A stretch of 64,000 bases of DNA from the IMG/VR virus record IMGVR_UViG_3300045988_175328, positions 160,001-224,000 of that record. One strand, given 5' to 3'. The stretch comes from a virus. Shown in pieces: positions 29,534 through 46,834 of the stretch. Each line of letters begins with the position of its first letter. The first letter of the stretch is position 1. The notes beneath the pieces were generated by a model. It worked only from the letters and a program-made list of their open reading frames with translations. It did no database searches and was not told where the DNA came from. A program made the translations under genes and the position numbers.

Positions 29534-29794
29534 ATGACTATTTCTGAACTTGAGGGCGCCATTAAAATGATGTTCATCATTTACGGCGAGCCGACCGCAA
29601 CGAATATTGGCTACGGTGTTTTCAGAGTCACCGCTAGTGATGCTGAAATCCTTATTGAGAGGATTGATACTACTGGTGGATCTAGTATTAAACTGACTGG
29701 TCCGTCTGGTTCTATTGAAAAAGACGAGCCGTCTTTAGAATTTAGATTGTTGGTTGACCGTCTAGAGCGAGTTGTAGACGGTTATAATTATTAG
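29534..29794 (+). CDS. small acidic protein
   Basis: The ATG at 29534 follows AAAGGAGG. The track start at 29483 overlaps the upstream peptide. Confidence 0.55.
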   Translation: MTISELEGAIKMMFIIYGEPTATNIGYGVFRVTASDAEILIERIDTTGGSSIKLTGPSGSIEKDEPSLEFRLLVDRLERVVDGYNY

Positions 29795-29816
29795 TTTATC
29801 TGTAAGGAGAAACATT

Positions 29817-30302
29817 ATGGAATTACAAGTAATTAAAGGTATGGTTATTGCGGCAAAATTAGCAAACAAATTTATGGGCGGCGCCTTGGAAAACAATCGT
29901 GCCGAGCTCCAAATCGGTGACGTGAATTTAGTTATTTACAGCGCTGGCGGAAACGAGGTAGTAATTGCTCCAACTTCTATGGAGATGTGGTATGACCCAA
30001 TCCATGTTGAAGGAACTTTGGAAACTGTCTTCGATACCATCGGAGAGATGCTAAAAGAAGCTGTCGAAGATGACGAAGACTCTCCATATCGTTACGAGTT
30101 TCCTAACTTAGAGCGCCTTGTCGAGTATATCGAGAAAGAAACAGGTGTCGTAGCTAACGAACATCCTAAATGCTATACTAAAGAATGGGACGGTATTATG
30201 GAATTCGACGAGTTCAAAATCGTTTTCTTTGGGCCATACCATGGTACTGTATATGTGCCGGAAGATTACAAACTTAACTTTGTGTTGAAAGAGTTACCAT
30301 AA
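29817..30302 (+). CDS. small acidic protein, paralog of 30582-31061
   Basis: Shared IKG(M/L)(V/I)(I/M)AAKLANK.. and FGPYHGTVY(V/A)PEDY(K/Q)LNFVL(K/D)ELP. Confidence 0.65.
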   Translation: MELQVIKGMVIAAKLANKFMGGALENNRAELQIGDVNLVIYSAGGNEVVIAPTSMEMWYDPIHVEGTLETVFDTIGEMLKEAVEDDEDSPYRYEFPNLERLVEYIEKETGVVANEHPKCYTKEWDGIMEFDEFKIVFFGPYHGTVYVPEDYKLNFVLKELP

Positions 30303-30313
30303 GGAGAAATATT

Positions 30314-30568
30314 ATGGAATTAATTAAAGGATTATTCATTGGCGCCGCCTTACTAGGCAAACCAGTTCTCGTTAAGAAAGAACGGAAGGGCGTATACAAT
30401 TTTATTATCGGGCCGATCACAGTTTTTATCTATGATTGGGATGACAGTCGCACTATCGTCGGTATTGATGGACCAGAAGGTTCATACGAATCTTACAAAA
30501 TCGACGGGGATGTGAGAACAGTATTACACTACCTTGTAGATGTCAACAATAATATCGAGATTAAATAG
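30314..30568 (+). CDS. small protein related to the N-terminal half of 29817-30302
   Basis: MELIKGLFIGAALLGK.. aligns with MELQVIKGMVIAAKLANK.. Confidence 0.55.
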   Translation: MELIKGLFIGAALLGKPVLVKKERKGVYNFIIGPITVFIYDWDDSRTIVGIDGPEGSYESYKIDGDVRTVLHYLVDVNNNIEIK

Positions 30569-30581
30569 GAGTATTATTGCT

Positions 30582-31061
30582 ATGAAAATTATTGAAGGTT
30601 TAATTATGGCTGCAAGATTAGCAAATAAAGATATAACATATCGACTAGAAATTAATTATGCCGAATTTAAGATTGGAGATATTACTTTAGATATCTACAT
30701 AAAAGATAAAAATATAGTTATGATTACTCCGACTTGTGAGAACATGTGGGGACAGCCACTCTATATCGAAGGAACAGTCGGGTCTGTTTTCTCTGATATC
30801 TTAGACATGGTAAACGAATCAGATGTCGATTCTGAGAATTCTCCGTATCGTCAGCGCTTTTCAAATTTAAAATCTTTGGTTGAGTACATCGTAAAAGAAA
30901 CGGGAGCTATTGCAGGAGAACATCCCAAACGTTATATCGAAGAGTGCGCTGACGTTATCGAATTCATTGAATTTAAAGTTGTATTATTCGGGCCATATCA
31001 TGGAACAGTGTATGCTCCCGAAGATTACCAACTGAACTTTGTTTTAGACGAATTACCGTAA
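30582..31061 (+). CDS. small acidic protein, paralog of 29817-30302
   Basis: The ATG at 30582 is preferred (SD TAGGAG). Confidence 0.65.
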   Translation: MKIIEGLIMAARLANKDITYRLEINYAEFKIGDITLDIYIKDKNIVMITPTCENMWGQPLYIEGTVGSVFSDILDMVNESDVDSENSPYRQRFSNLKSLVEYIVKETGAIAGEHPKRYIEECADVIEFIEFKVVLFGPYHGTVYAPEDYQLNFVLDELP

Positions 31062-31070
31062 GGAGAATTT

Positions 31071-31295
31071 ATGATGGTATTATATTTCGATACAGTTGAG
31101 GAGCTTATCGAATATTTTAAAAAGAAATCTGGATTCGAGCCGGGGCCTGTGAAAATTATTCGTTATTCTGATGGCGCATTCGATATTGTATATGGAGATA
31201 TCGAGCTAGAATTCGAGAATAAGATTAAAGGTTCCGTCTTGTTCTGTGGCGACTTTATGGTTCGCTTCGAACTTGGCACTCCCGTCGTAATCTAA
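31071..31295 (+). CDS. small acidic protein
   Basis: ORF with SD AAGGAG. Confidence 0.55.
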   Translation: MMVLYFDTVEELIEYFKKKSGFEPGPVKIIRYSDGAFDIVYGDIELEFENKIKGSVLFCGDFMVRFELGTPVVI

Positions 31296-31296
31296 A

Positions 31297-31314
31297 AAAT
31301 CCTCGTTGGCGAGG
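31297..31314 (+). promoter_or_regulatory. AAATCCTC hairpin copy
   Basis: AAATCCTCGTTGGCGAGG, with a perfect CCTCG/CGAGG stem (compensatory change relative to CCTCA/TGAGG). Confidence 0.6.
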
Positions 31315-31347
31315 TCGTATTTAAAATTTAATTAAGGAGGAATTATT

Positions 31348-31611
31348 ATGAACATGTCTTATTACGGAAGCTTATTTGATTTGGTAGAAGATATTAAAAA
31401 AGACTGCGGCGGATGGGAAACGTACAGTTATAAAGCCAAAGGCAATCAGTTAGACATTGAATTCTTTTTGGGCGACGATATCGTATGTAAGGCTGTCTTC
31501 GTGTTCGAGAAAAACTTAATCGAAGGATCTTATGTTGTCGACGAAGATATTTATGACTTCTCGGTTAAAACGGATGAAGTATTACACCATTTGTTTGCAC
31601 GTTTAGGTTAG
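31348..31611 (+). CDS. small acidic protein
   Basis: ORF with SD AAGGAGG. Confidence 0.55.
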   Translation: MNMSYYGSLFDLVEDIKKDCGGWETYSYKAKGNQLDIEFFLGDDIVCKAVFVFEKNLIEGSYVVDEDIYDFSVKTDEVLHHLFARLG

Positions 31612-31657
31612 TTGCTTGGGTCCTTCGGGACCCTTATTCTTTTATCTGGAGGTTACT

Positions 31658-31891
31658 ATGTCTATTGAATGGATTAAAGATATGTTTATTAAATTAAAAG
31701 ATGAGGCCGGAGCTATTGTCGGCATTGGTAATATGCATGACTATGATTTCGGGAAGATGTCTTTTAATTTTATCGACATGGACTTTGGAGTTGTCGGCGT
31801 CTCTTTCTGGGAAGGAGATGACGTATTTAATTTTGACGTATGCGCCGACTATGAAGAATTAATTAATGAACTTAATAGTATTCTAGGATAA
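31658..31891 (+). CDS. small acidic protein
   Basis: The ATG at 31658 follows GGAGG. The track start lies inside the GGGTCC-TTCG-GGACCC hairpin at 31617-31634. Confidence 0.55.
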   Translation: MSIEWIKDMFIKLKDEAGAIVGIGNMHDYDFGKMSFNFIDMDFGVVGVSFWEGDDVFNFDVCADYEELINELNSILG

Positions 31892-31901
31892 GGAGAACTA
31901 T

Positions 31902-32135
31902 ATGGAAAACTTGTGCGAATTATTAATGGAAGAAAAAGAAATAGGATTAGTTCAGTCTGTCGAGATTGAAGACGACTTATATCTATATGAATATCCAAGC
32001 GGCCGAGCACTCGTTAAAGAAATAGACGGGTACGCTACTTGTGACGTAGAGGTGGACGGAAGAAGATTCTTTTCAGATATCCATCTGCCATATAAAGATG
32101 TGGTGCGAGAATTAAACAGAGTCGTAGAATTATAA
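31902..32135 (+). CDS. small acidic protein
   Basis: ORF with SD AAGGAG. Confidence 0.55.
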   Translation: MENLCELLMEEKEIGLVQSVEIEDDLYLYEYPSGRALVKEIDGYATCDVEVDGRRFFSDIHLPYKDVVRELNRVVEL

Positions 32136-32140
32136 TAATA

Positions 32141-32700
32141 AGGGGTGCCCGAGCGAAGCGAGGGGTTAACGCCCCTTTTATTTTTTTCTAATAACCGTCT
32201 CCAACGGATCTAGCGAGCGAAGCGAGCGATTAACGAACCTACTATGTTTAAAGGGCGAGCGAATGCGAGCCCTTGTTAATGGACTTGTTTATATGAGGCG
32301 AGCGAAGCGAGCCGTTAATGTACCTATCTTAAGTTTAGTAAGGGCGAGCGAAGCGAGCCCATTAAAGAACTAACTTAAAGATAGTAGCGATGCGAACGAA
32401 GTGAGCCGAGCTGTTGGTCCTTACTATAGTATAGTCGGCGAGTGAAACGAGCCGTTATAGTATAGTACTTATATATAGTATTAATAGAAAGAACCCGAAG
32501 GGTTATTATGTATAATAGTATATATAAGCGAAAAAGGGAGCGTGAGCGACAGAAGGAGAGGCGGCGAACGAAGTGAGCCGTTGTTTGTTTCTTTGTTCCT
32601 GTATATATAAGAAAAGACAAGACAATTTGTTTTCGTCTTTTTGTTATATATAGTATAAAGAAAAAGAATAAATGGGCGCGAGCGGCAGCGAGCGATTGTT
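32141..32700 (+). repeat. array of at least 9 GCGAGCGAAGCGAGC-type hairpin repeats
   Basis: Perfect GCGAAGC cores at 32153, 32217, 32302 and 32348. Degenerate copies near 32253, 32386, 32437, 32560 and 32674. Spacing is irregular at about 45-115 nt. The first copy is embedded in the terminator of the upstream gene (GGGG..CCCC plus a T-run, 32162-32187). Confidence 0.8.
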
Positions 32701-32827
32701 TGTTCTTGTATACTATATAATAGTATAAGAAAGACAAGAATTTTTTTGTTTGTCTTATAGTACTATATAGTATTAATAGTAAAAGAAATAAAAAAAAGAA
32801 TGCCGGAAGTGGTCTTGAAGAGATTTA

Positions 32828-33481
32828 TGGTAATATAAGTCATGGTACATGACTTAACCCGTGGGAATTGTGGACGACCCTTCCTTCCGGTGCATGTACC
32901 TTTTTTATTTTTTGTCGCTGGCTCTTATTTAATTTTTGTTCTTGTTATATACTATATATATAATAATAAAAGAAATTAAAATAAGAATCGGCGCCGAGAA
33001 AATTTTGAGTAATATAAGTCTCGAAGAGACTTAACCGTGAGGTAGAATGGCCGGATGAATTGCTATTGTCTTATACTATATATATAGTAAGACACATAAC
33101 ATATCGCCGCCCGAACCCTTTAAAAAATTTTATTATTAAATTAATTTATATTTTTTAATTTTTTCGCCCCTGGTATTTTATTATAGTACTATATAGTAAT
33201 AATATATAAACATAACAACATAATAATAATCGCCCGGGCTTCCTGAAAAAATTTTTGGTAATATAAGTCTCGAAGAGACTTAACTCCTTACCCCCGGTAT
33301 CTTGATCCCGTAGGGGTCTTATTGTACTGTATCTACACTATAGTACTTACCGAACAAAATGTTTCTTATCTTACTTTTTATTCGGTTGTACATAGGGTTA
33401 GACACTTCGGTACATTAAAAAATTTTTTTTCTAAAAAAATGACTAACGTAACTTTTATGAGTAATATAACTAACGTTAGTT
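32828..33481 (+). repeat. four tandem ~200-nt units, each with a TG(G/AG)TAATAT extended -10-like box directly followed by a perfect hairpin
   Basis: Units at 32828-32855 (AAGTCATG-GTA-CATGACTT), 33006-33032 and 33256-33281 (AAGTCTC-GAA-GAGACTT), and 33458-33481 (AACTAAC/GTTAGTT). Each is preceded by an A/T run, a GC palindrome (CGGCGCCG, GCCCGGGC) and TATAGTACTATA-type palindromes. Confidence 0.7.
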
Positions 33482-33540
33482 TTCTTCGAAGAGAAGTAAG
33501 CTGAAACTGCAAGGCTGCCTGCTCTACGACTGCCCGTACG

Positions 33541-34200
33541 GTTTTTTATAGAAGAATGGTAGTGTATTAATACTGTACTGTTAGTACTACTAGTACTGTA
33601 CTACTCGACCCACACCTTTTGTGGCTGTGCCCTAAAAGGACGGGCCACTCTAATAGTTTTTTTACAGAAATTGTAGTTAATTTGTACTATTTCTAATGCA
33701 ATATTAATAGTAAAACTGCATTGGTTTTTCTGTACTTATAGATATACTAATTGCATTAGTTTTACAGATACAATTGTATTGGTTTTACAGTACCAACAGT
33801 TAACTAACACTACAGTACTTACAGTACTAATAAGACCGTACCAATGGTTTTAATGGTACTATAGTAAGATTGTACCATTGCCAATACAGCACTGCAAATA
33901 AAACCGTACTGTTTTGCAGTACTAAATGGTAATTAAATTGGTATGTTAATACAGTACTAACAAAACTGAACCAATGCTATTAATAGTACTACAGTTAAAC
34001 TGTATCAACAAGACAGTACCTATAGTACTATCAGAACTATAGTTAGATTGTATCAATAAGACAGAACCAATAGAACTATTGAAGCTATAGAAAGACTGTA
34101 CTAATTAAACTGTACTAATAGTATTAACAGTACATATAGTAAAGTAGTATTATATTAATAATTGTAATAGTAGTATTAATAATAAGAAGAATAAAGAAAA
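33541..34200. repeat. GTAC-rich iteron-like array
   Basis: I count 21 GTAC (8 of them AGTACT) between 33575 and 34133. A degenerate ~13-nt unit A(A/G)A(C/T)TGTA(C/T)(C/T)AAT recurs every 20-35 nt. There is no ORF. Confidence 0.7.
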
Positions 34201-34214
34201 GAAAAATTTTTTTC

Positions 34215-34241
34215 TTAAGGGGCAAGCCCCTTAACAACCCC
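34215..34241 (+). repeat. TTAAGGGGCAAGCCCCTTAACAACCCC element, copy 2
   Basis: Exact 27-mer preceded by GAAAAATTTTTTTC. Confidence 0.85.
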
Positions 34242-34462
34242 AAGTTGGTGAAGTTTAAAACAGCAGTAATATAAAGACTGTGTTTTTTGTATCACCTCCA
34301 ATACCGAAACACACATCATAATGTTTCCTCCTTTCTAAAATGATGAGAACTGAGAGCTCGGTTGAAACTTAGACCGAGCCTTGGTCTTATCGCGTTTACG
34401 CGTAATATACGAGTCCTGTAAGGACTCGATAACTGGAAACGATGTTAATTTATAGGAATATA

Positions 34463-34487
34463 GCCGCCCGTTTGGGCGGCTTTTTTT
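34463..34487 (+). terminator. intrinsic terminator
   Basis: GCCGCCC-GTTT-GGGCGGC followed by TTTTTTT. It closes a ~250-nt hairpin-rich ORF-free stretch (34242-34487). Confidence 0.8.
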
Positions 34488-34508
34488 GTTTTATTTGAGG
34501 TGTTATTT

Positions 34509-35237
34509 ATGGGATTTGATGGAAACTATAAAGACGAAAAATGGATTGTTTCGATAAACCGAGAGAAGAATCTTATTATCGAAGAACGAGGTGAGTTGTA
34601 TGAAGTTCAATGTATCGGAATGAATGGCAATGTGTTAGTCGACAGAGTATTCTTTATGGGCCCGATTAGCGAAGAAGAAGTTTGGGAACTTATCTGGAGA
34701 CTGAGATTGGAAGGTATAGACGGAGAACTAACGATAGAAGAAAGTGGTTTGAACTATAAGGATTGGTTTGACGGGTTCGGTTTATACGAAAGCGATTTGT
34801 TATTTGGAGGATCCTGTTTATGGAGAAGAACTGTCGGAGATGTTATTATCGATATCGGTATATCAGGTAACGGTAGAAATATTATGTACGAGAGAAAAGA
34901 AGATAGTTTCTTTGAAGTTTTAGTATATAGTGGTAACAGTAAAATTAGAAGTGAAATTAGTCAAAGTAAGAGCTTTGGTATTGGTAGTCCTTATAATAAT
35001 AGTGATATTCTTAGTAATAGTATAGATAGTGTTATTATTGATAATAGTAATAGTAGTAATAATAGTGGAGATGGTAATAATGGTATATATAGTTATAACT
35101 ATAGTGGATTACCTTGTTATTATAGAGGATATATTAGTTACTATATAGTATTAGAGATTATAGATATGTTTATTAGAGAGTATGGAGGAGTTAAAGAGAA
35201 AAGAAAAATTTTTTTTCTTAAGGGGCAAGCCCCTTAA
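34509..35237 (+). CDS. two-module paralog (N-terminal module plus WF/YYIVLEII module)
   Basis: The ATG at 34509 follows GAGGTG. It aligns with 37057-37665 and 37655-38173 (LYDV/LYEV, EEE(V/M)(L/W)ELIW.LR.E, YKDWF.GF, YYIVLEII). It contains an N/S-rich low-complexity insert. Confidence 0.6.
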   Translation: MGFDGNYKDEKWIVSINREKNLIIEERGELYEVQCIGMNGNVLVDRVFFMGPISEEEVWELIWRLRLEGIDGELTIEESGLNYKDWFDGFGLYESDLLFGGSCLWRRTVGDVIIDIGISGNGRNIMYERKEDSFFEVLVYSGNSKIRSEISQSKSFGIGSPYNNSDILSNSIDSVIIDNSNSSNNSGDGNNGIYSYNYSGLPCYYRGYISYYIVLEIIDMFIREYGGVKEKRKIFFLKGQAP

Positions 35238-35244
35238 CAACCCC
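35218..35244 (+). repeat. TTAAGGGGCAAGCCCCTTAACAACCCC element, copy 3
   Basis: Exact 27-mer overlapping the stop of 34509-35237. Confidence 0.85.
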
Positions 35245-35281
35245 AAGTTGACGTAGGTTTAAAGTGCTACGTTAGCAAATA

Positions 35282-35353: not shown

Positions 35354-35665
35354 ATAAGATATCAAAGCTGTGAAGAATTTGAAAGCTACTTCGACGGTCG
35401 ATTTTATCTATTAAAAGATCTTATTCGTGGAAATAAATTATTATGGGAAGTTGAAATAGATAAGTATACTGTTATAAATATATTAACTGAAGGAGACAGG
35501 TATGGAATAATATATCCCGAGAAAGAACGGAACTATTTTGAAGTAGGTATAATGTATGAGTCAGAAGGAAGCAATGATATTACACATCAAACTATATTAA
35601 ATGTTCCTTATTATGTGGCGCTTGAAATAATAAAGAGCTTAAAAGAAGATACTTTAAAGGAGTAG
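35354..35665 (+). CDS. WF/VPYY-family paralog with a probable non-canonical (ATA) start, not in the ORF track
   Basis: Frame open from 35342. AAGGAGG lies 7 nt upstream of the ATA at 35354. The product ..FESYFDGRFYLLKDLIRGNKLLWEVEIDKYTVINILTEGDRYG..NYFEV..VPYYVALEIIKSL aligns along its length with 40432-40734. Confidence 0.55.
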   Translation: MRYQSCEEFESYFDGRFYLLKDLIRGNKLLWEVEIDKYTVINILTEGDRYGIIYPEKERNYFEVGIMYESEGSNDITHQTILNVPYYVALEIIKSLKEDTLKE

Positions 35666-35669: not shown

Positions 35670-36005
35670 ATGAATGCAGAAGAGATATTTGATAAATATT
35701 CAAAATGGTTCGACGGAGATTTCTCTATACGTTCAAATGTTATCGAAGGACATTTTATTATAGAAGGATATAATTATATATGGAACGTCAGAATCGGCAA
35801 GGACCTTATTATGGAAATCATGACTAATGGTAAAAGTTTAGGAAGAATTTATTCTAAAAAAGAAGATAGCAGCTTTGAACTAAAGATTATTAATATTCAA
35901 AAGAAAGAAGATGAAGAATATCCATCTCAAACAATTGAAGATTTTTATAGCTATGTTCCTTACCATGTAGTGCTTGAATTAATTTATGCCTACCGTAATA
36001 ATTAA
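35670..36005 (+). CDS. WF/VPYY-family paralog
   Basis: YSKWFDGDF..W.V.I....MEI.T.G..KKEDSSFEL..VPYHVVLELIYAY. Confidence 0.6.
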   Translation: MNAEEIFDKYSKWFDGDFSIRSNVIEGHFIIEGYNYIWNVRIGKDLIMEIMTNGKSLGRIYSKKEDSSFELKIINIQKKEDEEYPSQTIEDFYSYVPYHVVLELIYAYRNN

Positions 36006-36116: not shown

Positions 36117-36374
36117 ATGTATTATCGTGATTGGTTTAAAGATTCTTATTTTGAAGAACCATTTGATGGTGGTTTGCGCTGGCATATTGAAGGTAAAAAG
36201 TATACTATTAGTATCGTTACCGGCGCATTCGTAATGGGTAAGAAGTCTTTTTGTCGTGAAACAAGTACTTATGAAGTTGCTCTATTACGAAAAGATGGTA
36301 CTGTTATTTATGACAGTATTGAAGGTTATTTAGATTATAATGAAGTATTAGGATTTATTGAAAAATATGTATAA
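36117..36374 (+). CDS. WF-family paralog (short)
   Basis: YRDWFKDSYF..RWHIEG..YTISIVTG..YEVALL..YNEVLGFIEKYV. Confidence 0.55.
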   Translation: MYYRDWFKDSYFEEPFDGGLRWHIEGKKYTISIVTGAFVMGKKSFCRETSTYEVALLRKDGTVIYDSIEGYLDYNEVLGFIEKYV

Positions 36375-36687
36375 TACTGAATTTTTTAATATAAATGATT
36401 ATGAAGATTGGTTTTTCGGCGCCGATATTTATTTCGATAATTTTATCGGCGGCGACAAACTAAGATGGATTGTCTTTTACAGAAAAGGCTTTTATTTAAA
36501 TATTAGTATTCTTATTGAAGATATTTTAAAGAATAAAGAATCTAATATATTTGATCTTAGTATGAACAAATTAAATGAATACAAGGGCGAATTATTATTT
36601 GATAGTATTGATGATGTTCCTTATTATTTAGTCCTCGAAATAATAAAAGCTTTAGAGAATTTTAATGAAAGAATGCGATTGGGTTGA
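36367..36687 (+). CDS. WF/VPYY-family paralog
   Basis: YEDWFFGADIYF..LRWIV..VPYYLVLEIIKAL. The ATG at 36367 overlaps the upstream stop. Confidence 0.55.
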   Translation: MYNTEFFNINDYEDWFFGADIYFDNFIGGDKLRWIVFYRKGFYLNISILIEDILKNKESNIFDLSMNKLNEYKGELLFDSIDDVPYYLVLEIIKALENFNERMRLG

Positions 36688-37665: not shown

Positions 37666-38173
37666 CGGAGTTTTATATAAAAGAAATAAAATTAAAAAAA
37701 GAATATCTGATGACAAATATCTTTCGATTCAAGAAAAAGACGGTCTATATGATGTAACTTGTATTTCTGATACAGGAAATGTATTTGTAAATAGATCCAA
37801 ATACTTTAATTTATTGGAAGAAGATGAAATGCTCGATTTATTATGGGACTTGCGGATTGAAGAAGCTCGTAACAGTATTCGCATTAAAAAAAGATTTAAA
37901 ATATACTCTAAATGGTTTTCTGGTTTTAAGTTAGATGTTGATGACTATATATATGAAGGTTTCTATATGTGGCAAAAAACTATTGGAGATTATTCTATTC
38001 TTATTAATACTTTAAGAGATACTAGTAGTATTATGTATGAAGATAAAGAGATTAGTTTCTTTGATGTTGATATACATTATTGTAGTAAAGATAATAGTAT
38101 TTCTTATTATTATAGAGGTGTTAATTATTATATAGTAAGAGAAATAATAAGAGAAATAAAAAAGTTTTCTTAA
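37655..38173 (+). CDS. two-module paralog
   Basis: MIFNGVLYKRNKIKKRISDDKYL..DGLYDV..YSKWFSGFK..YYIVREIIRE. Confidence 0.6.
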   Translation: MIFNGVLYKRNKIKKRISDDKYLSIQEKDGLYDVTCISDTGNVFVNRSKYFNLLEEDEMLDLLWDLRIEEARNSIRIKKRFKIYSKWFSGFKLDVDDYIYEGFYMWQKTIGDYSILINTLRDTSSIMYEDKEISFFDVDIHYCSKDNSISYYYRGVNYYIVREIIREIKKFS

Positions 38174-38196
38174 GGGGCAAGCCCCTTAACAACCCC
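38170..38196 (+). repeat. TTAAGGGGCAAGCCCCTTAACAACCCC element, copy 4
   Basis: Exact 27-mer. Its TTAA supplies the stop codon of 37655-38173. Confidence 0.85.
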
Positions 38197-39166: not shown

Positions 39167-39766
39167 ATGGAAGATATTAATAGATTCTATAAACATTTTG
39201 ACGGCACTTTAAAGAACGGCCTTAAATTTGTCGATCTTGCTTTATTCGTATCTTTAATTAACAATAAAGATTATACTACAATATATTTCTATGAGAATAG
39301 CGATATTGAAATTAAAACTTTTAGATACGTTGTTTCAGGAGAGCGGTTATATTCTTATGAAGACATGTATATTGTTAAAGATAACTTATATTGTATAGAA
39401 AGAGTAAGAAGCAGCAATCATTCTAATGATGATACTGTTCTTATTTCGAAACGTGTGTTTAAATATAATATATCTAATAATGATATTATTAGCGCCTATT
39501 TAGAATATAGTAGAGAATATGACCCTAAATTAATTAAAGAATCGGCTCGAAATATAGCAAGAGCTCTTAGCTTAAAAGGAAGTATCTTTGCTTTTGAAGA
39601 AGACACATTGTCTATTGAAATATGTCCTGGAATTGAAAGATGCAAGAAAATTGTACGAAGTACTCCATCTATTATTTCAGATATTCCGGATGTATTAATA
39701 AATAAAGAATACTTTAAGCCTGAACTTATATGGAGCGACGAAAGAGCATCAACGTTTGGCAAATAA
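39167..39766 (+). CDS. distant YYWE-family paralog
   Basis: Similar length and architecture (..IYFYENSDIEI..MYIVKDNLYCIE..). Confidence 0.5.
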   Translation: MEDINRFYKHFDGTLKNGLKFVDLALFVSLINNKDYTTIYFYENSDIEIKTFRYVVSGERLYSYEDMYIVKDNLYCIERVRSSNHSNDDTVLISKRVFKYNISNNDIISAYLEYSREYDPKLIKESARNIARALSLKGSIFAFEEDTLSIEICPGIERCKKIVRSTPSIISDIPDVLINKEYFKPELIWSDERASTFGK

Positions 39767-39805
39767 AAATCCTCATTTGTGAGGCGTATTTAAAGAGCAT
39801 ATATT
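39767..39805 (+). promoter_or_regulatory. AAATCCTC hairpin doubling as a sigma-A-like promoter
   Basis: -35 TTGTGA at 39777-39782, a 17-nt spacer, and -10 TATATT at 39800-39805. The gene start is at 39833. Confidence 0.55.
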
Positions 39806-39832: not shown

Positions 39833-40417
39833 ATGAGAACAGAAGAAGCGTTAGCTATGTTAATTGCTATGGTTAGTCATATGTATAGTGCTAAACGTTA
39901 TGATTATGAATTTAGCAAAGAAATTGTATTAAATAAAAGAGTCGGCGATACTATTATTGAAGATCACTTTTTAATTGAAGGCGAAAGTGATGTATATTAT
40001 TGGCGCGAAAGTAAAGATATTGTTGACGTAGAGAACGGCTTCTTTATTTATGGAAATATTGAATATAGTAAGATCACTTCCTTTGGAAAAGATATTAATG
40101 TATTTATTTCTGAATTTAATGAATTATGCTTAGGTGGCGATAAAGAATTATTAATGGTGCGTTACAATGCAATTAAAGAATTATTATCTGAACGCCGCAG
40201 CTCTAGAATTTATTATTTATCTGGCGATCCGTTCGAAGATTTAGGCGGACGCAATCTCCCAAATGGTATTTCTAGATATGGATGCCGATATGGTGTTTTA
40301 GAGAAATATGCATATTTCGAAACTAAAGGCAATTCTATCGATAAAGTATATGATTTTAAATATATTGTACCTAAAGTTGTCAATAAAAATACTAATTATG
40401 TATTTATTCTTAAGTAA
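39833..40417 (+). CDS. distant YYWE-family paralog
   Basis: ..HFLIEGESDVYYWRESK.. Confidence 0.5.
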   Translation: MRTEEALAMLIAMVSHMYSAKRYDYEFSKEIVLNKRVGDTIIEDHFLIEGESDVYYWRESKDIVDVENGFFIYGNIEYSKITSFGKDINVFISEFNELCLGGDKELLMVRYNAIKELLSERRSSRIYYLSGDPFEDLGGRNLPNGISRYGCRYGVLEKYAYFETKGNSIDKVYDFKYIVPKVVNKNTNYVFILK

Positions 40418-40431: not shown

Positions 40432-40734
40432 ATGATCAGCAAAGCTTGGCAGAAATATATATATTGGTTTGATGGTCGATTTTATGTATTAGAAGACCCT
40501 ATTCGTGGAAATAAAGGATTCTGGGAAATTGAAATCGATGAAGATACTTTTGTAAATATATTAACTGATGGATATAGATGTCAAAAATTATATTCCAAAA
40601 AAGAACATAATTATTTTGAAGTTAGCGTCTCTTATGAAACAGAAGATAGCGATAATTTTGTAACTCATACCTTATTATATGTTCCTTACTACGTAGTTTT
40701 AGAGATAATAGAAGGATTGAAGGAATCATTATGA
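40432..40734 (+). CDS. WF/VPYY-family paralog
   Basis: YIYWFDGRFYVLEDPIRGNKGFWEIEID..VPYYVVLEIIEGL. Confidence 0.6.
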   Translation: MISKAWQKYIYWFDGRFYVLEDPIRGNKGFWEIEIDEDTFVNILTDGYRCQKLYSKKEHNYFEVSVSYETEDSDNFVTHTLLYVPYYVVLEIIEGLKESL

Positions 40735-41291
40735 TTAATATAATGCCCGCAATGAATCTTGTTAGTATGATGACAGATGCTGAATATTATATTTTAGTTA
40801 AATATATGAATAGTGATTTTGAAATCATATCTGGAATAAATAAATATATATCTGATTCAATGTATGGTTATGATAAACATTTTTACTTTAAAGATAATAC
40901 TATATACTATTGGGAAACTAATATTTTTACATCTAAAGCAAAAACCAATATAAATGTCAGTGATTTATATGAAATAGATATCGATGAAAAACAAATTAAT
41001 AAATTGTTTAAAAATATGTATCATGAATTATCAGATAAATTAGGCTCTAAATATTCAGATGCTTTTGTTGAAAGAAGAAATAGATTGTATAATAAATTTA
41101 CTTCTAAGGAATCAGTTCCTATTTCTTGTCCAGAAAATAGATTAGAAATTCTTGAGATTGGAGAGAGAACTATTCCTAATAAAATAAAAAGAACTGAAAT
41201 AGAAACTGTTTATAGTATTGTCTTAGAAATATTAGATACTAGATGGAATTATACTATTGATTATAATTTAATAGATATGATTAAAGCCTAA
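40731..41291 (+). CDS. YMNG/YYWE-family paralog
   Basis: NLVSMMTDAEYYILVKYMNSDFEII..HFYFKDNTIYYWE..IKRTEIETV. Confidence 0.6.
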   Translation: MINIMPAMNLVSMMTDAEYYILVKYMNSDFEIISGINKYISDSMYGYDKHFYFKDNTIYYWETNIFTSKAKTNINVSDLYEIDIDEKQINKLFKNMYHELSDKLGSKYSDAFVERRNRLYNKFTSKESVPISCPENRLEILEIGERTIPNKIKRTEIETVYSIVLEILDTRWNYTIDYNLIDMIKA

Positions 41292-41320: not shown

Positions 41321-41902
41321 ATGCTAAGAGAAATGGAACTTATTAGACTTGTAAGTCTTATGAGTAATGCTAATTTTTATATCTTTATTAAATATATGAA
41401 TGGCAATTATGAGATTGTGGCAGAAACTTCTATTACTATGTCTGCTCATATTTATTTACATAATAAACATTTTTATTTAAAAAATGGGCAATTATATTAT
41501 TGGGAAACTAAAATTAATTCAAATACTGAAACAGGAGTAGAATATAAAGAGGTTTACAATCTATATGAAATAAATATAAATAAAGATCGAATTAATCAAT
41601 TATATGAGATGATGCATAACAATTTATTAGAAAAACTTGGTTCTGATTATTCACATCAATTTGTTAAAAGAACTGATCGTTTATTCGACAGATTTACTTC
41701 TAATGAATTATATGGTCTTTATATTTATAATCATAAAAATGGAGACATGGGAAAAATGCCTTTAGAAATTAGTAATGGAACTATTCCCAGTAAACTAAAA
41801 AGAACTAAGATTAAAATTATTAACAGTATATTATTATCTTATTCTAGTAACATATGGAAGTATTGTATAGATTACAAGTTAATTAATATGAATAAAATAT
41901 AA
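41321..41902 (+). CDS. YMNG/YYWE-family paralog
   Basis: RLVSLMSNANFYIFIKYMNGNYEIV..HFYLKNGQLYYWE..LKRTKIKII. Confidence 0.6.
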   Translation: MLREMELIRLVSLMSNANFYIFIKYMNGNYEIVAETSITMSAHIYLHNKHFYLKNGQLYYWETKINSNTETGVEYKEVYNLYEININKDRINQLYEMMHNNLLEKLGSDYSHQFVKRTDRLFDRFTSNELYGLYIYNHKNGDMGKMPLEISNGTIPSKLKRTKIKIINSILLSYSSNIWKYCIDYKLINMNKI

Positions 41903-41967: not shown

Positions 41968-42381
41968 ATGGACATCAAACAAATCTCACGATTAATTTGT
42001 ATGACAAGTCAAGGAAATAGTGTTAAAACATCTTTTTTTGAAAATGCTATTTTCATGACAGTAGTTAAAAATAAAATTCTTTGTGGCACTGAATGTATTC
42101 ATCAATATCATTATAAAATTAAAGATAATGAACTTGAGTTTTTTGAAAATTTTATAGGGCCAAATGAATTTGAATTAAAATCTCCATCTTTAAAACTAAA
42201 ATATAGTTTAAACGATTGGATGGAATACTCTGAAATTATTGGTGAAGGATATGCTGAATATCGATCTGAAGAGATTGAATCAATTCTTCTAGAATATAAG
42301 AATGATCAAGAGATATTTAATCGATCTGATTCTATTGCAGATACTGATTTCTCAATGAACATTCCTTACCATAAAAAGTAA
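41968..42381 (+). CDS. distant family member / hypothetical protein
   Basis: ORF with SD AAGGAG. Confidence 0.5.
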   Translation: MDIKQISRLICMTSQGNSVKTSFFENAIFMTVVKNKILCGTECIHQYHYKIKDNELEFFENFIGPNEFELKSPSLKLKYSLNDWMEYSEIIGEGYAEYRSEEIESILLEYKNDQEIFNRSDSIADTDFSMNIPYHKK

Positions 42382-42382: not shown

Positions 42383-42411
42383 TTGACAGAGAATATAGTA
42401 TTTGTTACAAT
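42383..42411 (+). promoter_or_regulatory. sigma-A-type promoter
   Basis: TTGACA at 42383-42388, a 17-nt spacer, and TACAAT at 42406-42411. Confidence 0.7.
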
Positions 42412-42461
42412 TTAATTGTCCAATACAATAACACATTGTTTTTCTCCTGTAATTTTGCGTA

Positions 42462-42490
42462 AGCTGGCTTTATGCCAGCTTTTATGTTTT
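42462..42490 (+). terminator. leader hairpin plus T-run between promoter and SD (attenuator or 5' stabiliser)
   Basis: AGCTGGC-TTTAT-GCCAGCT followed by TTTATGTTTT, directly before the SD AGAAGGTGAG. Confidence 0.5.
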
Positions 42491-42502: not shown

Positions 42503-43006
42503 ATGTTACATGAACATTGGAAGCGATTGCAAGAACCTGTTGATGAGTTAATGCAAGAAGAATTATTGAAACACATAAAAGAATATTGTAAAGAAAATAA
42601 ATCTTTAGAAGCTCAATGTTTAAATGACATACTTAATAATACTTCTAAAGAAAATATATTAGATTATTATACTTCTTTTGCTGGAGAAGACTTTAAAGAA
42701 ACGAATTTAATATTTAAATCAGTTAATGGCGCGATAGCTGCTATGATTCGATATAAAATAACTAATAACACACTAGTAACAGTTGGTATTATTGTTGCTG
42801 ATAAATATAATAATAGTTCTTTCATTTATAATCTAATTAAATCTTTAAATATTCTTTTAATTAATAGATATAAATTAGATTTTACTTATGTTTTAAAAAT
42901 AATCAAACAAGATCTTATCAAAGAATTTGAAAATATCAAAGATTTTAGAAATGCGTCGATTAATAAAAAAGAATTTGCTTTGTTTTTATGTTATCTTGAC
43001 ATGTAA
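42503..43006 (+). CDS. hypothetical protein
   Basis: ORF with an SD. Confidence 0.55.
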   Translation: MLHEHWKRLQEPVDELMQEELLKHIKEYCKENKSLEAQCLNDILNNTSKENILDYYTSFAGEDFKETNLIFKSVNGAIAAMIRYKITNNTLVTVGIIVADKYNNSSFIYNLIKSLNILLINRYKLDFTYVLKIIKQDLIKEFENIKDFRNASINKKEFALFLCYLDM

Positions 43007-43058
43007 AATATTATATGTTATTATAATAGTGTAAGCACGCAACACTCTATTCAAAAGA

Positions 43059-43121: not shown

Positions 43122-43688
43122 ATGATTGATTTCATGTATATAGCTAAACTTATTAGTATTATGACTTCTAGTGATTTTTATTATGTCATTAAATATGTAA
43201 ATAAAGATTATGAAGTTATATCTCAAACAGGAAATGAAGTAGGAGATTCAGTCTATACATATAATAAACATTTTTATTTTAAAAAGAATAAAATATACTA
43301 TTGGGAATCTAAAATATTTCATTTAAATAAAGCGACAGAAACAAAAATAGAAGTTAATGATTTATATGAGATTAAAAATAATGCTCATGGAATTAATAAA
43401 CGATATGAAATGATGTATGATGATTTATTAGAAGAACTAGGTCCTGAATATTCAGAGCTCTTAGAAAAAAGAACGGATAAATTATTTGAACATCTTGTTT
43501 CTAAAGAGCCTATAGGGCTTTATTGTTATTATATCGAATCTGCTCCTGAAATTGAAAATAATATGATTCCTCCTAAATTAAAAAGAACTAAAATTAAAAC
43601 TATTAATAGTTTGTTCTTAGGATTTTCTGATATTAAATATGATTATTGTATTACTTATGGATTATTAGATATAATTAAAGTTAACTAA
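43122..43688 (+). CDS. YMNG/YYWE-family paralog
   Basis: The ATG at 43122 follows GAAGGTGAG. The track start at 43068 lies inside the terminator hairpin. KLISIMTSSDFYYVIKYVNKDYEVI..HFYFKKNKIYYWE..LKRTKIKTI. Confidence 0.6.
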   Translation: MIDFMYIAKLISIMTSSDFYYVIKYVNKDYEVISQTGNEVGDSVYTYNKHFYFKKNKIYYWESKIFHLNKATETKIEVNDLYEIKNNAHGINKRYEMMYDDLLEELGPEYSELLEKRTDKLFEHLVSKEPIGLYCYYIESAPEIENNMIPPKLKRTKIKTINSLFLGFSDIKYDYCITYGLLDIIKVN

Positions 43689-43714: not shown

Positions 43715-44179
43715 ATGCTTAGTAATCATTATATTTCAATGCTTGTTGCATTATTATCAATAGGCGATAAAATTAATGTTCAAGAACATGAAGATTGTCT
43801 TCTTGTTTCAGTCGTAAAGACTGAAAAAGTTCAAGATAAAACATGGAAAGACATATATACTTTTGAATTTAGAGACGATATTATTTTTTTAGCAACTCAT
43901 AGTACGTATAATGATAAAGATACGTCTTTAAAAATAACTAAAGATAAAGTAATTCATTCTATTAAAATAGAGCCAAAAGAAATAGAAAACTTATATGATG
44001 AAATGTTCGATAAGTTATTTCATTTTAATAAGAAAGAGGCTCAAAAATTCATGGCGAGACGAATACAAATATGCAATTTCTTGCGACGCAAAGACTATTT
44101 AGATGGGTCTATCCAATTAAAATATCCTGAATTTAATTATGTTATGTTAAGAGAAATGTTTAACATGGAAAGATTATAG
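43715..44179 (+). CDS. distant family member / hypothetical protein
   Basis: ORF with SD AAGGGGG. Confidence 0.5.
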   Translation: MLSNHYISMLVALLSIGDKINVQEHEDCLLVSVVKTEKVQDKTWKDIYTFEFRDDIIFLATHSTYNDKDTSLKITKDKVIHSIKIEPKEIENLYDEMFDKLFHFNKKEAQKFMARRIQICNFLRRKDYLDGSIQLKYPEFNYVMLREMFNMERL

Positions 44180-44187
44180 GCAATTAA

Positions 44188-44826
44188 ATGAGCAAAGAAC
44201 CAAAAAAACTAAAAATAAATACAGAGCGCGCTTTTGATAATATGTTTAAAAATAATTTTAATAATACCATGTTAAATAATGGCATGGAATTATCGTATGC
44301 CATGGCTTTGTTTACTATTGTGAATACTACGAATATAATCAATATCTATACTTATAATAACGGAGATATTGAATTAATTGGTGAGAATAAGCATATTTTT
44401 AATTCTAGAACAAGAATATTTAAAATTCATTTATATTTTGGCGATAAAATTTATTACTGGAAGGATTCTAGTTTAAAAGAATCTAAAGATGAAAATACTG
44501 TTCAAAAATATGCCGATGAATACTATGAAATCTGTTTAGATAAAGAAGGAATACTTAAATTATTTAAAGAAGTTCTTAATGAATATAGCAAAGCAGAGCT
44601 CATTGAAGAAAGTATTTCATTCTTGTATCGTTTTCAAGAAGGATTAAATAAAATAACTTATGCTAATAAATATGGCGAAGTCAGAAAACATAATGTCGAT
44701 CCAAATTCCAAGATTAAAATTAGACGAGGTTCCACATATACTTCTGTCCGAGCATTTTTTAATGATCCAAATAGACGAGAAACATCTTCTATTAATGAAT
44801 CGTTTTTAAATCTACGAATTGTTTAA
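44188..44826 (+). CDS. distant YYWE-family paralog
   Basis: ..IHLYFGDKIYYWKDSS..YYEICLDKEGI.. Confidence 0.5.
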   Translation: MSKEPKKLKINTERAFDNMFKNNFNNTMLNNGMELSYAMALFTIVNTTNIINIYTYNNGDIELIGENKHIFNSRTRIFKIHLYFGDKIYYWKDSSLKESKDENTVQKYADEYYEICLDKEGILKLFKEVLNEYSKAELIEESISFLYRFQEGLNKITYANKYGEVRKHNVDPNSKIKIRRGSTYTSVRAFFNDPNRRETSSINESFLNLRIV

Positions 44827-44897
44827 TTTTATATTTCCATTAATATCTCATGTAATGATATAATAAAGTGATAAATACTTTTTTAAAGGAGACATAA

Positions 44898-45338
44898 ATG
44901 GAAACATATTATTCTACACGCGATTTTTGTGAAGAAGTATTGCGAAGCTTACCATTAGAAGAATCCACTAAAATTAATTTTGGAAAAGGCAAGGGAAATT
45001 TTGGTGGATTTGAATTTAGAAATAAAGACAATCGAATTGGATATTTAACGATTGAAAATTTAGAAAATCGTACTTATTTCTATTGTCTTTTTTTCTTTAT
45101 GTTTGAAGATCAATATGTGTATAGAAAAATAAAAGTCGATAAAAAGCCAAATGAAATTCTTAAAACTAAAAATCCTCCAATGCATGAAGATCCATTAGAT
45201 AGAATTTTGTATGTAATGGAGAAAACTCTTTTAGATTTTAAAAGAAAGAAAACAATCATGTATACTTTAGAAGAATTAAATGGTTTATTATTCGACGCGA
45301 GTAATTATCCAAATGGGGGGGGATTTTATGAAAATTAA
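44898..45338 (+). CDS. hypothetical protein (small paralog group with 45328-45675)
   Basis: INFGKGKGNFGGFEF aligns with INVSKGKNKFKFNFE. Confidence 0.5.
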   Translation: METYYSTRDFCEEVLRSLPLEESTKINFGKGKGNFGGFEFRNKDNRIGYLTIENLENRTYFYCLFFFMFEDQYVYRKIKVDKKPNEILKTKNPPMHEDPLDRILYVMEKTLLDFKRKKTIMYTLEELNGLLFDASNYPNGGGFYEN

Positions 45339-45675
45339 ATACGAAACAATAGATGAGTTAAGTCTATCTTTAAATATATTGCTTAAATATCACTATTTAG
45401 AACCTGATAATATTAATGTTTCTAAAGGAAAAAATAAGTTTAAATTTAATTTTGAAAAAGACAAACTTAGCTTAATGCAACTTGAAATGAAGATTTTAAA
45501 TAAGAAAGCATCAGGCGAATTTTTCTTTCAAGGATGCAAAGGAACTTATTATTTTACTGTGGATCAAGAAATAGATTCATTCTATCCATTCATTGAGTAT
45601 TTTGCTAAATACTATAAATTAAATGGTCATGATAAATTATCTTTAAAATTGGAGCCAGAAAATGCAAGATTTTGA
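45328..45675 (+). CDS. hypothetical protein
   Basis: The ATG at 45328 follows a G-run SD. Confidence 0.5.
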   Translation: MKIKYETIDELSLSLNILLKYHYLEPDNINVSKGKNKFKFNFEKDKLSLMQLEMKILNKKASGEFFFQGCKGTYYFTVDQEIDSFYPFIEYFAKYYKLNGHDKLSLKLEPENARF

Positions 45676-45976
45676 TTTTTTAGAAATCGATTATGCTGTC
45701 GATGAAGAAGATCCTAGATGGATAAATATTAAAAAATTAAATTTCAATAAGAATTTAAGTTGGCATAAATTTCCTGAAGATTGCCGATACAATAGTTATA
45801 TTCATTTTTATAATAACGAAATAGCTATTGCTATGTACACCGAAGATGACGCTCATACTTGTATGTATATAGAAGAAGGAAAGGACGTTAACATCGTTTT
45901 GTTCGATGAGTTTAAAAAGGTTTTAAATCAACAATCTGAAGAAATAAGAAAGGTGGCATTTAATTCAAATGATTGA
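45662..45976 (+). CDS. hypothetical protein
   Basis: ORF overlapping and coupled to its neighbours. Confidence 0.5.
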   Translation: MQDFDFLEIDYAVDEEDPRWINIKKLNFNKNLSWHKFPEDCRYNSYIHFYNNEIAIAMYTEDDAHTCMYIEEGKDVNIVLFDEFKKVLNQQSEEIRKVAFNSND

Positions 45977-46325
45977 CGATGAAATATTCCAAAAGATGCT
46001 TGTTCGATATAGAAATTACACTGACTTAAGTCAAGATTTCATCGAAAAAATTGAAGAATCTAACAAACAAAAAGTAATTGAACTAGAAGTTGTTGGTGTT
46101 CAAGAACCTGGAGTTTTTCATTTACAGTTCTTCGGAGAAAGAAGTAATGTAATTGGCGAAGCCAGTATCGTATATCATCAAGGATTAATTACCGGAATTT
46201 TAGATTTCGGAAGAAAAAACGAAGAAGTGTTTCCTTTCGAAGTATCTAATAAAAGTTTAAAGATTAATAATTTAATCCAAGAATTTGAAAAATACATTCA
46301 AGTTGATTTTATTAATGAAATTTAG
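45969..46325 (+). CDS. hypothetical protein
   Basis: ORF overlapping and coupled to its neighbours. Confidence 0.5.
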   Translation: MIDDEIFQKMLVRYRNYTDLSQDFIEKIEESNKQKVIELEVVGVQEPGVFHLQFFGERSNVIGEASIVYHQGLITGILDFGRKNEEVFPFEVSNKSLKINNLIQEFEKYIQVDFINEI

Positions 46326-46326
46326 C

Positions 46327-46353
46327 AGCCGCCCTTCGGGGCGGCTTATTTTT
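46327..46353 (+). terminator. intrinsic terminator
   Basis: AGCCGCCC-TTCG-GGGCGGCT followed by TATTTTT. Confidence 0.8.
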
Positions 46354-46387
46354 ATTTTCAACCGTCTCCAACGGAACAAGATGAATT

Positions 46388-46834
46388 ATGCAGAACGAAA
46401 AAAGAGCGTATCTGATCTTAGAGATGTTCTATCAAACAGGGAATGAAATTGTTTTCAGTGCCTTCAATAGAACCAATCAAGTGTCTTCCAGATATACAAA
46501 TTGCTATTATCGAAATGGTTTTTGTCAAAGACAAATTTTATTTGACGGAGGCAAGGTTTATCGATACGAAGTAGTCGAAGATTTAGATACAAAAATTAAT
46601 CATGTGGCTCATCAATCTTGTATTAGATATAAAGACTATGACCACATTAAACCTATTATGGAAAAAGAATTGATCGCTCGATATGGTATAACTAAATATG
46701 AGCGATATCTTAATTTAATTGACAGAGCCTGCAATGAAACATACGGCTCATTTACAACAGAATTTTATTCCTTTTCAATTCCTCCAATTGGAGAATATGA
46801 CGATACATTAGAAGACATAGAGGTGATATTTTGA
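46388..46834 (+). CDS. hypothetical protein (possibly a distant YYWE-family member)
   Basis: ..RQILFDGGKVYRYEVVED.. Confidence 0.5.
   Translation: MQNEKRAYLILEMFYQTGNEIVFSAFNRTNQVSSRYTNCYYRNGFCQRQILFDGGKVYRYEVVEDLDTKINHVAHQSCIRYKDYDHIKPIMEKELIARYGITKYERYLNLIDRACNETYGSFTTEFYSFSIPPIGEYDDTLEDIEVIF

Follow-up and report, generated by a model that had tools for sequence, protein, structure and literature searches.

Tandem arrays of three old small-protein families in the accessory region of an uncultivated tailed phage

The window analysed here is a stretch of 64,000 nt, positions 160,001–224,000 of the genome of an uncultivated tailed phage of ~225 kb (IMG/VR record IMGVR_UViG_3300045988_175328). 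Its interval 29534–46834 carries tandem arrays of small + strand genes that fall into three families, here called A, B and C, with each gene named by its first position in the window. The copies within each family are true, old paralogs and translated genes, and between related phages the arrays turn over, with whole-gene cassettes replaced, lost, put in another order or decayed into pseudogenes. The families match nothing that can be named, and as candidates for host interference or anti-defence they are reasonable but unproven.

Membership and antiquity of the three families

All-against-all BLASTP of the non-overlapping + strand open reading frames (ORFs) of the window recovered three multi-member clusters inside the interval, and elsewhere in the window just a few unrelated pairs. 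Profile hidden Markov models (HMMs), run to convergence on the 879 segments of a six-frame translation of the window, gave no match at E < 0.1 on the minus strand and none outside 29.8–44.9 kb, while the best E value among 9,669 shuffled or reversed decoy sequences was 0.26. The original prediction, read from the sequence by eye, had proposed about 30 paralogous genes. The paralogy itself withstood alignment statistics (BLASTP, HMM, profile comparison by hhalign, and decoys), and the consensus strings of the families echo the motifs picked out by eye nearly letter for letter. The count, by comparison, comes down to 20 firm and 2 probable members among the 33 ORFs of the interval, because gene 46388 and five acidic ORFs could not be joined to the families. 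Together, the three families occupy about 12 kb.

All ten genes first listed for family A were recovered by its HMM (E 1e-21 to 1e-38), whose consensus matches the motif given for them. They have in common a module of ~100 aa, which forms the C-terminal half of three two-module proteins, 34509–35237 (242 aa, with a low-complexity insert), 37057–37665 (202 aa; BLASTP, HMM) and 37655–38173 (172 aa; BLASTP). The N-terminal module predicted for these three proved to be real (BLASTP 4e-25 to 3e-44) and is only ever fused to an A module, to which it has no detectable homology (hhalign probability <= 1.3%). BLASTP and HMM agree on 35670–36005 (111 aa), 36367–36687 (106 aa) and 38215–38526 (103 aa), the HMM adds 36699–37034 (111 aa), and the divergent 36117–36374 (85 aa) moves from E 0.0026 in the first HMM round to 7e-23 after iteration (hhalign 1e-17). 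The two remaining members are 35354–35665, which is without a canonical start, and 40432–40734, which lies inside the B array and whose stop overlaps the start of 40731 (ATGA); 40432 is the closest paralog of 35354.

Family B (~190 aa) holds seven firm genes out of the ten originally assigned to it. Five of them are clear by BLASTP, namely 38580–39152 (190 aa, with a GTG start), 40731–41291 (186 aa), 41321–41902 (193 aa), 43122–43688 (188 aa) and 44188–44826 (212 aa, with an N-terminal extension), and all five were also recovered by HMM. Two divergent members enter in the first profile round: 39167–39766 (199 aa; E 4e-8, hhalign 1.7e-23), which matches over its N-terminal ~135 aa, and 43715–44179 (154 aa; E 1.2e-5, hhalign 1.2e-27). 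Two borderline genes, 41968–42381 (137 aa; HMM E 0.0046) and 39833–40417 (HMM E 0.0095), are probable distant members. The orthologue group of 39833, which includes homologues from two other phages, matches family B over the first ~60 residues of the latter only, keeping register through the motifs LxxMxS, HFxx and YYW (hhalign P 2.4e-4, probability 44%). For 46388, profile comparison by hhalign gives no support.

Family C keeps three of the eight genes once grouped there and is modular, an ~85-aa module occurring in short (84–90 aa) and long (159–161 aa) forms, the latter with an additional module of ~75 aa. Genes 29817–30302 (161 aa, isoelectric point (pI) 4.4) and 30582–31061 (159 aa; BLASTP, HMM) are long forms linked by BLASTP at 2e-61. 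The short form 30314–30568 (84 aa) has the N-terminal module only and joins through it (HMM 7.5e-6 in the first round; hhalign 5e-6 to 29817). The acidic ORFs 29534, 31071, 31348, 31658 and 31902 have no profile support as members; 31071 and 31348 resemble the C-terminal module of family C over a 20-residue helix only (P 0.0017 and 0.018). The description of the C block as acidic and richer in guanine plus cytosine (GC) was accurate, with pI 4.1–5.2 and GC 0.35–0.42 against 0.23–0.34 in the A and B arrays. GC content declines steadily along the arrays between 29 and 46 kb, to 0.24–0.34 in the A array and 0.23–0.29 in the B array, and GC skew is strongly positive throughout (0.16–0.34).

Within the genome, paralogs are 19–45% identical, with a single pair (35354/40432) at ~60%, and no link between families A, B and C was detected (hhalign probability <= 1.3%). 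The genes of all three families are translated. Nearly every start has a Shine–Dalgarno sequence of the GGAGG type 5–10 nt on its 5′ side, and several adjacent genes overlap by 4–14 nt. The products are mostly acidic (pI 4.1–5.6), and eight of the ten family A proteins have a pI of 4.4–5.1 and a whole-protein net charge of -3 to -13. No long hydrophobic or membrane-spanning stretch was obvious when the translated A, B and C sequences and two structural models were inspected, no dedicated transmembrane or signal-peptide predictor having been run.

The statement that none of the families could be named is borne out by every search made. When the 40 proteins encoded between 25.9 and 47.6 kb were all compared with Pfam, PHROGs v4 and PADLOC 2.0, no A, B or C member had a significant match, and comparison with Protein Data Bank (PDB) sequence profiles gave nothing; neither profile nor structure searches placed the proteins in a known housekeeping family. 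A lone weak PADLOC match of 43715 to CARF_HEPN_mCpol (E 7e-4, 16.9 bits) was judged spurious, because no other member shows it and the predicted β-meander does not agree with it. Profile searches of 5.8 billion clustered proteins returned 14 matches for A, 6 for B and 17 for C, all unnamed, which lie mostly on contigs of ~215–229 kb and for the remainder on shorter fragments. An exhaustive HMMER pass with family B over 1.84 billion representatives found 12 proteins in total, and a single-protein scan of IMG/VR found no match.

The two most distant family B matches lie in a sister genome, L014, and on a 48-kb contig, L011, of a clearly more distant phage. L011 also has a family A gene (E 7e-11), another gene like those of family B and one like 39833. 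Its family B gene has, one gene upstream, a gene with an RnlB-antitoxin domain, and a Panacea-domain protein encoded on the contig is 82% identical to that of window gene 56088–56528. Families A and B are thus found together in two lineages of phages. By these searches, A, B and C are clade-restricted families, with relatives only on sister contigs and on one contig of a more distant phage.

Structures were predicted with AlphaFold2 from the family alignments. The model of the B protein 40731 is confident (predicted local distance difference test (pLDDT) 87, predicted TM-score (pTM) 0.86) and has a helix at the N terminus, then a meander of six strands, a pair of long helices and, at the C terminus, a small element. 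The model of the two-module A protein 37655 is usable (pLDDT 80, pTM 0.60) and shows the order β-β-β-β-α then α-β5-α, the inter-module orientation being uncertain. Neither model had a Foldseek match at E <= 0.001 in the PDB, nor did that of family B in BFVD. A CapZ-alpha-like assignment of family B was rejected as not meaningful (Foldseek E >= 7e-3, TM-score 0.24, root-mean-square deviation (rmsd) 22 Å). In family A, W, F, Y, I and E are invariant, and in family B I, R and P. These positions are aromatic or aliphatic core residues, besides a KE..FE motif in A and a single arginine in B, and nothing among them looks like a catalytic constellation.

Turnover and selection among sister genomes

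Four sister genomes were compared, namely that of the window (identical to L001 here), L006, L008 and L014, and L011 was added for a five-genome clustering in which types are clusters at 60% identity. Copy numbers of A, B and C differ between strains, at 10, 7 and 3 in the window, 7, 6 and 3 in L006 and 8, 7 and 3 in L008. The five genomes contain 12 A, 12 B and 3 C types, one A and one B type being found solely in L011. The four sisters share few of their 11 A and 11 B types: only 2 A types, one of them that of 36699, and 3 B types occur in every one of them. Where blocks differ, they have been exchanged for others and not just lost. In L008, the 34509 cassette is exchanged for a different A type of 107 aa, and in L006 the order is changed, the orthologue of 41321 standing upstream of that of 37655. 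The probable distant B member 41968 is confined to the window strain (L006 and L008 are without it).

Orthologues are mostly 89–99% identical between genomes, with some at 48–77%. Since paralogs within a genome are far more diverged than orthologues between genomes, the duplications predate the clade. What continues today is sorting, exchange and loss. The synonymous divergence (dS) leaps between 0.02 and 1.5 from one neighbouring gene to the next, and these jumps indicate mosaic recombination. A 64-nt direct repeat (88% identical) flanks 34509 at 34197–34260 and 35200–35263, and it is possible that such direct repeats and the intergenic hairpins at cassette borders serve as recombination substrates.

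Selection was measured as the ratio of non-synonymous to synonymous substitution rates (dN/dS) by the Nei–Gojobori method, with the window phage compared with two sister genomes. Orthologue comparisons took the place of paralog comparisons, synonymous sites being saturated at 20–45% amino-acid identity. The ratios were 0.12–0.43 for family A, 0.05–0.66 for family B and 0.05–0.25 for family C, next to 0.05–0.08 for two conserved upstream genes in the same comparison. Because all orthologue values lie below 1 (0.05–0.66), the arrays are under purifying selection, which is somewhat relaxed.

Gene 35354 stands apart. In the window its start is ATA, after a strong Shine–Dalgarno sequence (AAGGAGGTGA); L014 likewise has ATA, and the L006 orthologue (~6988–7297) has ATG and an in-frame TAG at codon 12. 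The lesions in the window and in L006 are independent, and gene callers passed over the gene in L001, L006 and L014. It is probably a redundant copy on the way to loss, since a second copy, ~60% identical, exists at 40432.

The A gene 40432 adjoins the B gene 40731 with overlapping stop and start (40432–40734/40731–41291), and a second arrangement of this kind is found in L006 (10001–10534/10528–11091). These adjacent, overlapping genes and the co-occurrence in L011 hint that A and B proteins may work together.

A host-directed repertoire and its alternatives

The explanation we put forward, with a confidence that falls a little short of even, is that the arrays are a birth-and-death repertoire of non-enzymatic, host-directed binding proteins with a role in anti-defence or takeover. 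The A, B and C proteins would be soluble, mostly acidic, non-enzymatic binding modules, because the conserved positions are core aromatic and hydrophobic residues and catalytic motifs are absent. Each type might bind its own host protein or protein variant, with defence components or host machinery as candidate targets. Such type-specific targets would give each phage a strain-specific repertoire, which could be reshuffled through homologous recombination among co-circulating relatives.

The plastic accessory regions of large phages are the main source of new anti-defence and host-takeover proteins, and usually consist of unrelated singletons. T4-type phages reportedly have hyperplastic regions with mobile ‘PeSL’ promoter-stem-loop cassettes (Comeau 2007 and Arbiol 2010 are said to describe them). 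The likeness lies in plastic blocks of small ORFans, in whole-gene cassettes swapped between relatives and, apparently, in repeated stem-loops at borders, whereas the genes there are mostly singletons, compared with families of 10 and 7 copies here, and the hairpin sequences differ, with no promoter demonstrably attached in our case. The gp37–gp60 module of SPO1 and the Tre genes of Staphylococcus phage K are host-takeover modules in terminal repeats that are proven to be early. They resemble the arrays as dense runs of small, mostly uncharacterised genes in large phages of low-GC hosts, with promoters of the host type; the arrays have no homology to these modules and lie on contigs that are arbitrarily permuted. 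The African swine fever virus families MGF360/505 and the poxvirus ‘gene accordions’, which are interpreted as host-range or immune-evasion repertoires, share tandem paralogs, strain-variable copy number and a large virus genome. They belong to another host domain and encode other proteins, and accordion copies are recent and near-identical, in contrast to 19–45% identity here. In Sulfolobus rudiviruses, AcrID1 paralogs cluster near genome termini, with 26 of 35 known homologues in four viruses (PMC11065993). Here as there, many small, divergent copies of a single ORFan family are neighbours in an accessory part of a viral genome, strains differ in the set that they carry, and most of the copies lack an assigned function. 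The rudivirus genes differ in that they belong to archaeal viruses, have a defined early regulatory motif in common and include one member with proven anti-CRISPR activity (PMC11065993). AcrID1 has no sequence or structural relation to A, B or C. A literature search on tandem paralog families in jumbo phages yielded eukaryotic work only.

Genes with similarity to defence-related ones occur on both sides of the arrays. The product of 27256–27639 (+ strand, 127 aa), 2.2 kb upstream of family C, matches through its C-terminal half both PADLOC Unk_01 (1.4e-7), labelled ‘small protein sometimes fused to CARF’, and the Crn4b structure PDB 9r7b (6e-4), and it keeps the arginine motif RDAxGxxxGC. Crn4 is a cyclic oligoadenylate (cOA) ring nuclease that occurs in phages too (PMC12830947). 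By this similarity, 27256–27639 may encode a phage cOA ring nuclease or binder, a candidate for countering type III CRISPR or cyclic-oligonucleotide-based antiphage signalling (CBASS). Downstream, at a distance of 9 kb from the arrays, 56088–56528 has a SocA/Panacea antitoxin domain (6e-13). We also noted a weak MqsA-antitoxin-like zinc-ribbon protein at 53387–53872 (8.6e-5, under the Pfam cut-off) and a short GmrSD_N/DUF262-domain protein at 57160–57615 (4e-12). No helix-turn-helix regulator resembling anti-CRISPR-associated (Aca) proteins was seen in the array. The variable regions of large phages are enriched in counter-defence-type genes (PMC12028318).

The arms-race function that had been proposed for the arrays thus draws indirect support from strain-variable copy number, type and order, from the loss of 35354 and from these defence-like neighbours, together with the RnlB-antitoxin-domain gene near a family B gene in L011. 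Several points weigh against it and against the repertoire of host-directed binders. Gene-wide positive selection is absent, dN/dS being below 1 for all orthologues compared, and the paralogs are ancient, so that neither rapid escalation nor a recent burst is evident. Guilt by association is weak in a region where ~95% of the surrounding genes are ORFans, and the Crn4b-like match covers a C-terminal half only, the N-terminal catalytic histidine not being evident. Matches to sigma70-like promoters do not exceed those in shuffled sequence (126 against 110.6 +/- 11.9), which leaves early timing unsupported. The arrays also lie on the same strand as, and downstream of, baseplate and tail-fibre genes, and a virion-associated role is conceivable.

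A bolder version of the host-directed repertoire, which we regard as doubtful, would make the arrays a phage counterpart to the multigene families that giant viruses of eukaryotes possess, with strain-specific, recombination-shuffled inhibitors built on two folds without detectable relatives. The A modules would homo- or heterodimerise for combinatorial specificity towards host defence or takeover targets, an idea taken from the fused N-plus-A forms, which hint at dimers. A and B might act jointly, given their co-occurrence in two lineages and their translational coupling at 40432/40731.

Whether or not the proteins act on the host, the phenomenon is a known one (plastic accessory regions and the multigene families of large viruses), but the protein families are entirely new. 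Nothing so far contradicts expectation or opens a long-standing question. The arrays provide a case for the birth-and-death evolution of phage multigene families, and family B a high-confidence predicted fold without a match in PDB or BFVD. The sister genomes supply natural “knock-out and replacement” variants, and the ~12 A and ~12 B types form a compact set for screening against defence systems or for host binding partners.

A first alternative is that family A, and perhaps B, consists of nucleic-acid binders of the PUR/Whirly/PC4 type that serve phage transcription, replication or RNA metabolism, maybe on the repeats of the ORF-free region described below. The top Foldseek matches of the 37655 model, all non-significant, were 2it9 (E 0.014, probability 0.94), PUR-alpha repeats I–II and MRP1/MRP2 (E 0.09–0.12), which we take to belong to one β4-α “Whirly/PC4/PUR” fold class. 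The β4-α then α-β5-α order of the model fits that class, and the arrays lie directly downstream of the iteron-like and hairpin-repeat region. The matches have TM-scores of <= 0.26 and rmsd values of 15–20 Å, there is no sequence-profile link, and the N and A modules are not homologous to each other by any test used. Most members are, moreover, strongly acidic, the opposite of such binders, and ten strain-variable copies fit poorly with a core role in replication or transcription. Given the low TM-scores and the acidity, the PUR/Whirly-like resemblance is a weak one, to be taken as a lead only, and we consider a nucleic-acid-binding function of this kind unlikely.

Another possibility is that the products are associated with the virion or are internal proteins ejected from it. 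Large myoviruses are known for such paralogous sets, which go into the capsid and then into the cell together with the DNA; among them, the internal proteins of T4 and the inner-body proteins of phiKZ vary between strains. The arrays share their strand with baseplate- and tail-fibre-like genes (tail PHROGs, and Gp10_C domains at 17142 and 18925) and start 4.4 kb downstream of them, and their products are small, acidic and paralogous. Between the two, however, come ~4 kb with further small ORFs, the 2.4-kb ORF-free region and a number of terminator-like hairpins. The arrays have sigma70-like promoters of their own, no A, B or C protein matches a structural PHROG, and the window offers no head-protease or scaffold context. 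Packaging into the virion is, on this balance, unlikely.

Immunity-gene clusters are typically tandem arrays of small, divergent, cytosolic paralogs, and the resemblance in layout suggests a third alternative, namely that A, B and C are immunity-type proteins (orphan arrays directed against polymorphic toxins) or act in superinfection exclusion, keeping competitors out of the infected cell. Antitoxin-like domains in the wider region, that is, the Panacea domain at 56088 and the weak MqsA-like match at 53387, would agree with such a role. Against it, scans of Pfam and PDB found no toxin domain in the upstream proteins of 1608, 1670 and 792 aa, which show tail or baseplate features or nothing, the first two having neither a Pfam toxin nor a PDB match; a polymorphic-toxin context was rejected on this ground. 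As no A, B or C member has a Pfam match, none matches Pfam's immunity families, and the membrane-spanning stretch usual in exclusion proteins was not obvious on inspection (made, as said, in place of a dedicated predictor). We therefore hold an immunity or exclusion role to be very unlikely.

Finally, it is highly improbable that the arrays are dispensable remnants of old duplications drifting to loss with no specific present function. The lost ATG of 35354 here and its nonsense codon in L006, the many types missing from individual strains and the low GC across the B array (0.23–0.27) point that way, but dN/dS is well under 1 in nearly every orthologue pair at dS values of up to 1.6, reading frames and Shine–Dalgarno sites are intact, and A and B are kept together in the distant lineage L011. 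If the proteins were ordinary dispensable ORFans, the value of the arrays would be limited to annotation.

Sequence signals and the surrounding window

Between the C block and the A array lies an ORF-free, repeat-rich stretch of 2.37 kb (32136–34508), which the original prediction passed over and which is ~86% conserved with L008 and closes with a strong terminator (34462–34481). It contains at least six GCGAGCGAAGCGAGC repeats and three units of ~190–240 nt, each with a palindromic TATAGTACTATATAGTA and a TAATATAAGTC / TGGTAATATAAGTC...GACTTAAC hairpin. The TGGTAATATAAGTC...GACTTAAC hairpin is possibly an extended -10 promoter followed by a 5′ stem-loop. A GTAC-rich, iteron-like array at 33520–34150 (630 bp) holds 22 of the 133 GTAC sites of the window. 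Rfam found nothing credible in the whole window or in the ORF-free stretch, which might serve as an origin, as a hub of promoters or as a cluster of small RNAs.

Two hairpin motifs recur at gene borders between 25.5 and 50 kb (25578–50142). The first, AAGGGGCAAGCCCCTTAACAAC, has four exact copies on the + strand (25645, 34217, 35220 and 38172..38193) and a variant at ~41911, with 0 expected by chance; its copy at 35220 codes for the final residues, FFLKGQAP, of gene 34509. The second, AATCCTC-N(3-9)-GAGG, has eight copies, on the + strand only and just past stop codons (25578, 25740, 27859, 28213, 31298, 35283, 39768..39784 and 50126), against 0.07 expected, with variants at 26552 and 36040. 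Both motifs could be sites of RNA processing, RNA stability or recombination. Terminator-like sites number 20 in the window, compared with 6.4 +/- 2.6 in shuffled sequences, and strong terminator-like hairpins are found at 32160, 34462, 42461 and 46327. Good sigma70-like extended -10 promoters lie at 42996–43024, upstream of the B gene 43122, and at 42383–42411. The latter precedes 42503–43006 (+ strand, 167 aa), an unrelated singleton in the B array with a terminator-like hairpin at 42461–42481.

The remaining ORFs of the interval are also on the + strand. The acidic 29534–29794 is a singleton without a profile link, and its slot in L006 and L014 is occupied by a third family C type (L006:1812–2081). 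The four acidic ORFs 31071, 31348, 31658 and 31902 (74–87 aa, together 31071–32135) are conserved between strains (dN/dS 0.02–0.18), with no demonstrable paralogy. Downstream of the arrays, five singletons without detectable paralogy, 44898, 45328, 45662, 45969 and 46388, extend over 44898–46834, with a terminator at 46327–46346.

Every ORF of note in the window is on the + strand except an HU-like gene at 49671–49949. In the first 25.4 kb, a DnaE-like fragment is accompanied by large genes for tail, baseplate and fibre proteins, with matches to PHROG tail families and Gp10_C domains, and from ~25.5 kb to the end of the window run small genes, almost all without database annotation, so that the interval is a portion of a ~40-kb accessory small-gene region. 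Paralogous pairs found by BLASTP outside the interval are 28852–29337 and 50581–51096 (1e-22, 21 kb apart), 12205–13125 and 13135–14079 (2e-19), 17142–18350 and 18925–19890 (5e-18, both with Gp10_C domains, fibre or baseplate), 59199–59633 and 59711–60163 (1e-9), and 2412–3224 and 3221–4081 (1e-6). There are no tRNAs in the window.

The window DNA has no near relative among the 50,697 deposited phages of INPHARED, and the isolated phages in that collection gave no DNA or protein match, near or distant, to the arrays or to the 5-kb tail gene; the best match of the DnaE-like fragment there is 36% identity, to Bacillus phages. Identical or sister sequences are metagenome contigs of 221–229 kb and the GenBank “MAG TPA: Caudoviricetes sp.” hypothetical proteins DAV06307.1 and DAV06309.1. 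An insertion sequence (IS) of 1.88 kb at 47569–49449, whose sole gene is TnpB-like (48119–49378; PHROG transposase, 6e-43), is present in the window strain, and the same site is empty in L006, L008 and L014; the insertion shortens a gene of 99 aa to 74 aa (47408–47632). This element is closest to one in a metagenome-assembled genome of Gemella sp. (83% at the protein and 82% at the DNA level), others in Lachnospiraceae and Filifactor being ~60% similar. Taken together, the GGAGG-type ribosome-binding sites, the low GC content and the similarity of the IS element weakly suggest a low-GC Gram-positive (Firmicutes) host.

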